Shown one piece after another: positions 54,918 through 56,260 of a stretch of DNA of 64,000 bases. Positions within the stretch are counted from its first letter, which is position 1; each line of letters opens with the position of its first letter. The DNA comes from a virus. Position numbers and translations under genes: made by a program. The stretch lies in the IMG/VR virus record IMGVR_UViG_3300025018_002313; one strand, 5' to 3'. The notes below the pieces were generated by a model that saw only the letters and a program-made list of their open reading frames with translations, was not told the DNA's origin and did not search any database.

Positions 54918-55299
54918 CAGAACGCCTGGAGCAATCTCTTTATGCTCCTTCACATTAATTTCGATTCCCATAGTGTCCCCTTTCTTTCCATTAATATACG
55001 ATATACACGTATACTATACAAGCTAAAAAGAGAGATTTCTATGTGATATACGCAAAGAAATATCAAGCGCACAGCAAGAACACCGAGAGCGTGCAGGGTG
55101 AACTTCGAGCCGATATTGGTACGATCCAGGACCAGATATAGTTCTTGGAATAAGGCAACTGAAAAGATGCTTTATTTTCTACCTGTGTTCCTATATCATT
55201 GTAAGGTGAGGCAGAAATGATCGAGGAGTGCAACTAGAAACGGCTCCGCGGCTGACTTTTTTTGCTTGCCATTTTAGTTGAAATATGGCAGCTCGCAGT

Positions 55300-56260
55300 T
55301 CCTGGAACTCGGCTGGCGCAGACTGATTGAGGAATGACCATAGATAGTTGATAGCGAGCTATGATTAGTTGATGATTTGAGTTTGCCGGTTGGTCATTGA
55401 AGGCTGTGAATGAATAGTTTAGTTGATTGCGAGCTGTAGATTTGTCGTTTTGTGGGTTGGGTAGTTGTAGACTGGCTGTTAGAGGTGAGAAGTGTTCGCC
55501 AAAAATAGTTCGCGCCAAGTACTATTTATACTATTCCCGCCCAGCCAATCTCTATCCGATCTCTCATTTCTCCCTAGACTCTCCCTCTATCTTCGCATAG
55601 CATCGGCTACATTATCTCTCACCTCTCCACGCCATTACACCTCTATGCTCATGCTCTATTATGCACCTATATCCTCATGCTCTTATTTCTTATCTTCCAT
55701 CTTCTTATACTACATCTTCTACTACAGCATTATCTATCTTCTACTCTACATTATACTAGACTGTTTTCTTCTTTGTCTTATTCTAACTCCTTCGGCCCCA
55801 AATGGTTCAACGCCTCAACGCTTCATTTAGTCCCTAGTCTCACGCTTCAACGCCTGAACGCTTCATTTAGTCCCTAGTCTCACGCCTAAACACCTGAACG
55901 CTTCCTAGCGGTTCCTCCTATATATCACCACTAATAATCTCAAGATCTCACGCCTAAACGCTTGCAATTCTTCTTCGTATCACATACCATATTAACACTA
56001 TGATCAGACCGTGCTCCTCTGTGTTTCCTGCATTCTATTTGCCCTACATTACCCCTACTTTGCCCCCGGAAACACATGCTTTATCCCCTATTACACTATA
56101 TTTTTCCCTGTTTTAGAGCAAGTATTCCATATGATTTGCACATAGTTTCTCCAGACAACTATAAAATCTACATTTATACTGTTGTTTGGAGAATGTTAGT
56201 TTTACTATTTTCCCGTCCAGGTCTGCCTTTAGCGCTCGCTCCTTATACCTGCTCCTTCTA
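55300..56260. other. non-coding island with strand-composition flip (GT-rich then CT-rich on + strand)
   Basis: About 55330-55500 nearly C-free on + strand; about 55500-56260 nearly G-free on + strand; no credible ORF on either strand. Confidence 0.6.
55817..55905. repeat. tandem direct repeat, about 2.2 copies of a 40-bp unit
   Basis: aacgcttcatttagtccctagtctcacgcttcaacgcctg / ...cacgcctaaacacctg / aacgcttcc; AACGCTT-like motif recurs at 55808, 55950 and 50530-50575. Confidence 0.7.

Follow-up and report, generated by a model that had tools for sequence, protein, structure and literature searches.

The window analysed here is a 64,000-nt stretch of viral DNA (IMG/VR record IMGVR_UViG_3300025018_002313), and our subject is a non-coding island at its positions 54972-56112. 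The gene set of the window is that of an uncultured myovirus, with tail sheath, baseplate hub, large terminase and ribonucleotide reductase, and the identical sequence is present in several public assemblies, in contigs as long as 236 kb. The position of the island is the upstream border of a cluster of early genes, directly after an operon, also on the - strand, that runs from a peptidase gene to a gene for a protein of 93 amino acids (aa). The early region itself (55.0-44.6 kb) comprises 13 small genes, all on the - strand, each behind one copy of a single promoter family. Overall, the island is real, has no equal in the window and is in part under constraint; an element of a known kind plausibly accounts for it. 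It is composed of two parts, a constrained module on the left and a labile module on the right, which are joined at a flip of strand composition.

Composition and coding content of the island

A first-pass annotation of the window had described the + strand as nearly C-free on one side of the island and nearly G-free on the other. The skew is real, but the two bases are depleted and not absent: C makes up 8.8% (15/170) of positions 55330-55499 (GC skew +0.58; window mean C 21.4%), and G makes up 9.6% (59/613) of positions 55500-56112 (GC skew -0.55, 68% pyrimidine; window mean G 17.8%). The longest G-free run in the island is 47 nt, not longer than the longest such runs elsewhere in the window. 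The abrupt flip between the two compositions was borne out by a skew scan, which placed it at 55494-55520; 55481-56000 is the sole place in the 64 kb where a 300-nt stretch has |GC skew| of at least 0.5. No such stretch was found in seven loci of other phages scanned in the same way (~91 kb). The right limit first proposed, 56260, has to be moved, since it lies 148 nt inside the 93-aa gene (56113-56394, - strand), the 3' end of which occupies 56113-56260. As to the ~700 nt of purine-rich, C-depleted RNA expected from the - strand, its composition would be as described, while its untranslated length would come to ~610 nt.

No credible gene was found in 54972-56112 under three genetic codes. Over 54900-56300, all three stop codons are present in each of the six frames, so that codes 4 and 15 rescue no gene, and gene callers left the same 1195 nt empty in independent assemblies. 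The earlier statement that there is no credible open reading frame (ORF) here agrees with these results. Three ORFs nevertheless have to be weighed:

55518 to 55234, - strand: 94-codon ORF with a TTG start, without ATG and without a Shine-Dalgarno sequence
55492-55830, + strand: 112-aa ORF, a length reached or exceeded in 31% of composition-preserving shuffles
56077 to 55940, - strand: 45-aa ORF that follows the 93-aa gene directly; AGGGGA stands 6 nt ahead of its ATG

In favour of a hidden gene, the 94-codon frame is still open in both strains of a related phage (L214 and L215, see below) despite +1/-1 and 9-nt indels, and the 45-aa ORF, with its AGGGGA, was called in two assemblies. However, the 45-aa ORF was not called in the others, and its length is not significant for its composition. 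The proportions of synonymous (pS) and nonsynonymous (pN) differences in the 94-codon frame are nearly equal, 0.13 and 0.14, unlike the neighbouring genes, where the ratio of nonsynonymous to synonymous rates (dN/dS) is 0.14-0.18; between its two compensating frameshifts, this frame encodes a peptide unrelated to that of the relative. Its TTG start without a Shine-Dalgarno sequence contrasts with the AAGGAGG found on every early gene, and open frames are expected here anyway because G amounts to only 10%. A lookup of the 94-codon and 112-aa ORFs, which covered these two, returned neither from a collection of 15 billion proteins.

Segment 55521-56112 showed no similarity to local proteins. We also considered a pseudogene remnant of the neighbours, and discarded it as blastx against the ORFs of the window and of its relatives gave nothing below E = 0.99. 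A template/variable repeat pair of a diversity-generating element was rejected as well, no island segment being present twice in the window.

The first-pass annotation had further suggested a structured or sponge non-coding RNA. A structured RNA is not borne out: compared with dinucleotide shuffles, the 561 nt spanning the flip fold less stably on both strands (- strand z = +2.2, + strand z = +1.3), six local segments gave z from -1.3 to +0.8, and Rfam 15 had no match at the gathering score in the 64 kb and none within the island at E <= 10. The sole Rfam match at E <= 10 in 54800-56400 falls in an HNH endonuclease gene (54854-54895). Since G and C are concentrated in separate halves, pairing partners are removed, and an RNA of either strand would be unusually open. 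A sponge for known binders found no backing either: GGA, Shine-Dalgarno-like and ARN motifs are no more frequent than composition predicts, and we therefore dropped sponges for CsrA, Hfq or ribosomes.

A conserved left part and a labile right part

The left part can be compared with a related phage (~77-81% related), two contigs of which, L214 and L215, carry a 77% identical homologue of the 219-aa protein encoded next to the island. They come from different strains and align with the window from 55520 down to ~45.4 kb. The features of the left part are as follows:

55031-55131: unconstrained spacer, used as an internal neutral reference; p-distance to L214 0.41, with 32 gap columns, mainly one ~30-nt indel
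55135-55215: best conserved non-coding block (81 nt); p-distance 0.11
55241-55264, + strand: weak hairpin followed by a T run, resembling an intrinsic terminator for + strand transcripts; the stem is kept and the loop varies in L214
55280-55520, - strand: conserved C-rich, G-poor, unstructured segment (A 34%, C 32%, G 10%, T 24%); p-distance 0.18, pS close to pN
55494-55520: GC-skew flip; the cumulative skew has its maximum at 55494, and both contigs of the relative begin at 55520

Over 55520-55131, p-distance to the relative is 0.16-0.18, while pS at the synonymous sites of two adjacent genes is 0.36-0.58. The left part thus changes 2-3.5 times more slowly than synonymous sites. Given such slow change and the absence of a codon pattern (pS close to pN), the left part is selected as DNA or RNA. 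Among the alternatives named in the first-pass annotation, a site for a DNA-binding protein is in line with purifying selection of this kind.

Two segments stand out within the left part. Block 55135-55215 contains a sequence (AATGATATAGGAAC / AATGATATAGG) similar to the early promoters' -10 box, together with a hairpin of 10-14 bp that could be formed by either strand; since the hairpin does not vary among the three sequences, two of which are nearly identical, there is no covariation by which to judge it. In segment 55280-55520, the relative shows a skew of the same direction, its counterpart having C 34% and G 16%. Six direct repeats of [CG]AACTA lie there on one strand, against 0.3 expected (P < 2e-4; none of 5000 shuffles had more than 3), and they are conserved in the relative. 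Their spacings are 44, 42, 54, 21 and 70 nt, and their common core is only 6-8 nt long. The segment also includes a conserved palindrome, AGTTCCAGGAACT. Moreover, the strongest stretch of 78 nt with C above G on the - strand of the whole 64 kb, of the kind seen in Rho utilization (rut) sites, is found at 55417-55494 (C 30, G 5); all the remaining top stretches of the - strand are antisense to + strand genes.

An operator-like motif, (A)AAGTTCAC(A), occurs at about 55090-55107 on the - strand of the window, within the ~170 nt that precede the -35 box of the 219-aa gene's promoter. It was found in all relatives down to 39% protein identity: L214, L216 (two copies) and L219.

The right part has a different make-up:

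55521-56112, - strand: purine-rich untranslated spacer, the labile half (purine 69%, C 9.3%), with short tandem duplications
55806-55904: 40-bp tandem repeat (period 40, 2.5 copies, 93% matches)
55802-55964, - strand: four blocks of 2-3 consecutive 8-mers, -35-like (GAAGCGTT / CAGGCGTT), which include the 40-bp repeat
55810 to 55780, - strand: promoter-like site TTGAAC-19-TAGAAT, a consensus-level site
55779 to 55750, - strand: promoter-like site AAGACA-18-TATAAT, 10/12 of the consensus
56020-56108, - strand: cluster of five G runs (G3-G5); a 9-bp stem (56020-56028 / 56068-56076) encloses the three central runs
50534-50573, - strand, outside the island: second 8-mer array of 4-5 units, running into the -35 box of a strong promoter, TTGACT-16-TATAAT

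Tandem Repeats Finder (TRF) detected periods of 8, 11, 12, 15, 26 and 40 in the right half. The 40-bp repeat reported earlier is indeed present, and its copy number varies in nature: the unit is found in 2.5 copies in the window and in contigs L220-L224, and in 1.5 copies in the otherwise identical L225 and L226. As both L214 and L215 begin at 55520, the purine-rich half is not available from any relative. The comparison of repeats among homologues that had been proposed could accordingly be made for the left part, where the CAACTA repeats are kept; the half that carries the 40-bp repeat is absent from the contigs of the relative. Overall, a sharp skew flip, which was noticed as an oddity of sequence, marks a real boundary between a non-coding element under purifying selection and a hypervariable spacer.

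The -35-like cores of the GAAGCGTT / CAGGCGTT units are GTTGAA and GTTCAG. In the form SAACGCYT, all nine window sites (9/9) are on the + strand, within 50540-50795 and 54920-55896. The AACGCTT-like repeats that had also been noticed near 50530-50575 are real, forming an array at 50540-50573, and the strong promoter that follows them at 50.53 kb leads to AAGGAGG and the start of a 63-aa gene. The two promoter-like sites at 55810-55750 overlap each other and lie directly downstream of the 8-mer blocks, in the same layout as at 50.53 kb; promoter-like sites in the region number 12, against 10.9 in shuffles, which is no excess. In a relative at 39% protein identity, (AAGCGTTG)x4 stands upstream of a gene. 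The description as promoter-proximal repeats suits the 8-mers better than that as origin iterons.

Arrays of (S/T)AACGC(Y)T with at least 6 units occur widely in environmental contigs that are unrelated (GC 35-72%, contigs of up to 2.1 Mb), where they are mostly intergenic and often at contig ends (L095-L213; IMG/VR L075, L081, L082). Their association with a downstream -10 box in metagenomes is weak (9.6% vs 2.3%), and a literature search for the array sequence returned no paper. We gave up the idea of a phage-specific signal, as none of these contigs is related to the phage; the abundance of the arrays is uncalibrated, no control 8-mer having been scanned. The idea of a Chi site, GAAGCG being like some Gram-positive Chi sequences, was dropped.

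Proposed transcription control, and the rival explanations

We tentatively favour the reading that the island is a two-part control and insulator region, transcribed but untranslated, at the head of the early-gene cluster. No intrinsic terminator was found on the - strand after the 93-aa gene, so that polymerase should transcribe the island. It would enter on the - strand either by read-through from the peptidase-to-93-aa operon or from the island's own predicted promoters (55810 to 55750). The first ~600 nt of the predicted RNA (A 35%, G 33%, U 22.5%, C 9.6%) would be untranslated, unstructured and C-poor, with little for Rho to bind. Rho loading needs untranslated, unstructured, C-rich and G-poor RNA. 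Past the flip, where the predicted RNA has C 32% and G 10%, Rho could load and might either stop transcription or allow regulated passage before the first early promoter is reached. The requirements for a Rho-terminator RNA (~78 nt, C well above G, unstructured, untranslated) match what is found at 55417-55494. The mirror composition might act likewise on + strand antisense transcripts, for example those leaving the HNH gene, which would otherwise enter the upstream operon. The CAACTA repeats, the palindrome and block 55135-55215 would most likely be recognition sites for a protein or polymerase, tuning the Rho zone.

Lambda tR1 with its rut sites is a Rho-dependent terminator of a phage early region. 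Like it, and like the boundaries between immediate-early and delayed-early genes in T4, the island has features of such terminators and insulators in having more than 78 nt of untranslated C-rich, G-poor RNA between the end of one early unit and the next promoter. It is unlike them in that ~600 nt of the opposite, C-poor composition come first, in that it is constrained in sequence as well as in composition and has the CAACTA repeats, and in that no boxA/boxB-like element was recognised.

Several points weigh against a control and insulator region. The evolutionary comparison covers one related lineage, represented by two nearly identical strains, and the left half of the island. The promoters and the termination are predictions from consensus and composition, and the Rho step presupposes a host with Rho. 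Rho-loading sites are usually kept in composition and not in sequence, so that the conserved sequence and the CAACTA repeats would indicate an element of greater specificity than Rho loading. Finally, such a region gives no reason for ~600 nt of purine-rich spacer, and the right half may be functionless.

What is usually recorded of the early region of a large uncultured phage is a series of small genes of unknown function; the non-coding control DNA there has hardly been studied. The island gives precise coordinates for studying how such phages separate and time their early transcription units or, less likely, where replication or packaging starts.

It is possible, although we think it unlikely, that only the left half is functional and that the right half is a mosaic spacer generated by slippage at a recombination junction, its skew being a by-product of the expansion of pyrimidine-rich seed repeats. 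The many short tandem duplications and the differing number of 40-bp units among otherwise identical strains would fit such a spacer, as would the lack of any known motif enriched beyond composition. In two strains of the relative, the contig stops precisely at the junction, which is expected where co-occurring variants diverge, and similar recurrent contig ends are found at 57.37-57.50 kb, inside a gene. There, five assemblies have contigs that begin within 57367-57452, and L007 of the relative ends at 57503, each of these points being inside a 211-aa gene, which suggests that 57367-57503 is a second strain-level mosaic boundary. However, ~600 nt of dead DNA would be unusual even in a phage of 236 kb, and the skew is unique in the 64 kb. 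It also goes beyond what slippage alone would produce, because it is present between the repeats as well. The fold energy, worse than shuffled, suggests that structure is avoided, and the 8-mer blocks match a promoter-associated motif used elsewhere.

A replication origin, which the first-pass annotation had proposed, seems to us improbable. It could be of the R-loop type, primed by the purine-rich - strand transcript, or of the iteron type, with an initiator acting on the CAACTA repeats beside an easily melted stretch. We estimated the energies of RNA:DNA hybrids with R-looper-type parameters and with Sugimoto minus SantaLucia parameters. By these, - strand RNA from 55530-55930 was respectively the first or the second most hybrid-favourable 400-nt segment on its strand (z = -2.9 to -3.7 for 400 nt and -3.1 to -4.3 for 200 nt), but a coding region on the + strand at 23.9-24.3 kb is equally hybrid-favourable (z = -3.8). 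The G-run cluster, in particular its part at 56042-56108, lies on the 5' side of such a transcript, and is one of only two candidates on the - strand of the 64 kb for a G-quadruplex (G4)-like structure with extended loops. The promoter-like site is followed by a stretch of 30% GC at the 99th percentile of duplex instability (55682-55781), which is nevertheless not among the eight least stable 100-bp stretches of the window. The six conserved one-strand direct repeats would suit an iteron origin, although their spacings are only loosely in helical phase. Origins of the iteron type (lambda ori, T4 oriE, plasmid origins) have several direct repeats of 12-22 bp at even distances, with an initiator gene beside or around them.

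Precedents for both types exist in T4, where oriF and oriG consist of a promoter with an A+T-rich unwinding element and oriE of iterons with an early promoter (PMC3016281). The island is like these in its promoter-like site, which would feed an untranslated, hybrid-favourable transcript into an A+T-rich stretch, with direct repeats nearby and within the early region. The minimal T4 origins, however, are ~100 bp of promoter and unwinding element (PMC3016281), where the island has a 600-nt purine-rich tract. Furthermore, oriE, oriF and oriG are situated at points of transcriptional divergence, and for the oriF/oriG type a switch of the large-scale nucleotide skew is expected there as well (PMC3016281), whereas the genes flanking the island, the inserted HNH gene excepted, share the - strand, and neither a MotA-type promoter nor a late-promoter signal of T4 type was seen. 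The designation as a T4-type phage is not established: the T4 late promoter sequence TATAAATA occurs 6 times in the window against 7.3 expected, and this lack of enrichment led us to set T4 late promoters aside.

Other observations also speak against an origin. Cumulative skew in 1-kb windows keeps falling across 53-58 kb without a turn, the purine-rich half needed by an R-loop is the labile half, and the adjacent 219-aa protein is unlike any initiator, having no Pfam family and no fold match in the PDB (best E = 0.6); we rejected it as an initiator candidate. At the syntenic place, the island is lacking in relatives with protein identities of 39-63%. Those reached through synteny of the peptidase gene (51-63% identity) have tightly packed small genes there, with no island and no skewed stretch; their DNA was seen at 51-54% and 63%, and the gene table only at 61%. 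According to the first-pass annotation, an ordinary protein gene at this place in homologous phages would speak against its proposal. This applies in part, as one of the more distant relatives (39-63%) has an ordinary 146-aa gene where the island would be.

A bolder version, to which we likewise attach a low probability, is a composite origin of a jumbo myovirus. A purine-rich, nearly C-free transcript from the internal promoter, which because of its composition would be neither cleared by Rho nor folded away, might form a persistent R-loop. The 3' end of this R-loop near the flip (55.5 kb) might prime the leading strand, and the CAACTA block might load a helicase or initiator.

We consider it quite unlikely that 55520 is a physical genome end, a terminal-repeat boundary or a concatemer junction. 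The first-injected DNA would then, with the same low probability, be a conserved leader of ~490 nt followed by early promoters, and the repeats would serve the terminase. In the left end of T7 and the terminal redundancy of SPO1 and T5, a leader followed by early promoters makes up the first-injected DNA. With these ends, and with the non-coding concatemer junctions of T7-, T5- and SPO1-like phages, the island has in common ~1 kb of non-coding, repeat-rich DNA before strong host-type early promoters reading away. Two contigs from different strains begin at the same base, the early-promoter cluster begins 490 nt from 55520 and reads away from it, the 45-56 kb block is distinct in GC (43-50%), and non-coding, repeat-rich DNA is present on both flanks. 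Identical contig ends may mean a physical end of the DNA, but they are equally expected where co-occurring variants diverge. The two contigs may stem from related data, and contig ends recur elsewhere (57.37-57.50 kb). In addition, 32 kb separate this point from the terminase gene, a search of the window for the boundary sequence gave no second copy, and, unlike at the ends of T7, T5 and SPO1, at least 7 assemblies of the phage read through 55520.

Very unlikely, in our opinion, is an RNA acting in trans, either as an unstructured decoy or with the 40-nt unit mimicking the RNA of a host type III antitoxin. Each 40-nt unit contains AAAU, a cleavage motif of ToxN. The locus is intergenic, within the early region, and its unit has 1.5 or 2.5 copies in natural strains; a variable tandem repeat of ~34-45 nt in a transcribed intergenic region, which is what an antitoxin mimic calls for, is thus found here, its transcription being a prediction. 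A precedent is the pseudo-ToxI of the myovirus PhiTE, which likewise has an intergenic tandem repeat of ~36-40 nt: 1.5 copies of a 36-nt unit were expanded by slippage to 4.5-5.5 copies (PMC3475682). Unlike pseudo-ToxI (PMC3475682), the island repeat has no similarity to known antitoxin RNAs and no cognate toxin was found. The unit is composed largely of the promoter-associated 8-mers, and stable structure, enrichment in GGA, Shine-Dalgarno-like or ARN motifs and Rfam matches, even at E <= 10, are all lacking. A tandem relative of the unit core was not found in 185,579 genomes with the one exact pattern tried; the two-copy core pattern gave 12 matches, all of them unrelated repeats. Whatever its role, natural copy-number polymorphism of the 40-nt repeat is documented here, and a similar one in a known phage underlies escape from a bacterial suicide system.

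Finally, that the 94-codon, 45-aa or 112-aa ORF is a hidden, small and fast-evolving gene is scarcely credible in view of the substitution pattern, starts and shuffles given above.

The HNH insertion and the surrounding early region

Regardless of these alternatives, the control and insulator region that we favour adjoins an early cluster whose first gene has been interrupted in the window. The features concerned are:

54972-55030, - strand: early promoter, Shine-Dalgarno sequence and ATG, conserved in L214, L215 and L219; the true 5' end of the relative's 219-aa gene
54971 to 54870, - strand: 33-aa stub ORF, including the first 18 codons of the ancestral 219-aa gene
45180-52150 and 54972-55030, - strand: early promoter family in 13 copies, GCTTGAT-N17-TATCATATAGGTA..AAGGAGG..ATG, of host sigma-70 type

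In the relative, the promoter and the start codons for MGIEINVK...APGV run directly into a 217-aa protein. Where the window has MGIEINVKEHKEIAPGVL, L214 has MGIEINVKDLKEIAPGVMKKNS, which continues into this protein. Three paralogous HNH endonuclease genes are present in the window on the + strand, opposite to the early genes (47831-48310, 52198-52755 and 54402-54917). No counterparts were found in the collinear contigs of the 77% relative, where no opposite-strand gene was called. Since the relative is without HNH genes and its start is uninterrupted, HNH gene 54402-54917 is a recent insertion in the window. This third HNH gene split the 219-aa gene, leaving the 18-codon stub and a substitute N-terminus, and is a clear case of a homing-endonuclease insertion. 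The left part of the island is the ancestral upstream region of the first early gene.

All early genes have AAGGAGG, and most start with ATG, the one at 50480 with GTG. The rough consensus of the 13-copy family is TTTnGTGCTTGAT-N17-TATCATATAGGTAnnTTAAnnAAGGAGG-ATG, with a strong Shine-Dalgarno sequence and a small gene at each copy; those that match the core with 0-1 mismatch are found only at 45.19-51.70 kb.

Searches outward from the locus gave few matches. At the DNA level, the island had no match among GenBank phages, distant mode included, and the largest structural protein gave short weak matches to them (<60% identity, <=13% coverage). No relatives of the two flanking proteins searched were found in IMG/VR, where three conserved or repeated patterns of the island had 0 matches; the 93-aa protein found nothing in JGI metagenomes, and the sole homologue of the 211-aa neighbour was itself. 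A tRNA/tmRNA search detected none.

The 219-aa protein has a paralogue in the 222-aa protein (gene 52801-53469, - strand), with the common motif W.YC..ER..KLI..FG....YVSREAK, and neither of the two has a Pfam family above the curated cut-off. The second copy of the motif in the 222-aa protein is degenerate, without W.YC, and the tail of this protein is rich in Lys, Glu, Pro, Thr and Ala; GC of its gene reaches 59-66% in a phage of 38% GC. The 219-aa family has a conserved Cys-rich C-terminal part, C..C.WW..C, with no Pfam family and no fold match in the PDB. Two further small proteins resemble host proteins: a 160-aa protein (57798-58280, - strand) with the C-terminal domain of ribosomal protein L7/L12 (PF00542, 27.2 bits vs a cut-off of 25.9), and a ClpS-like protein of 93 aa (PF02617; 49803-50084, - strand).

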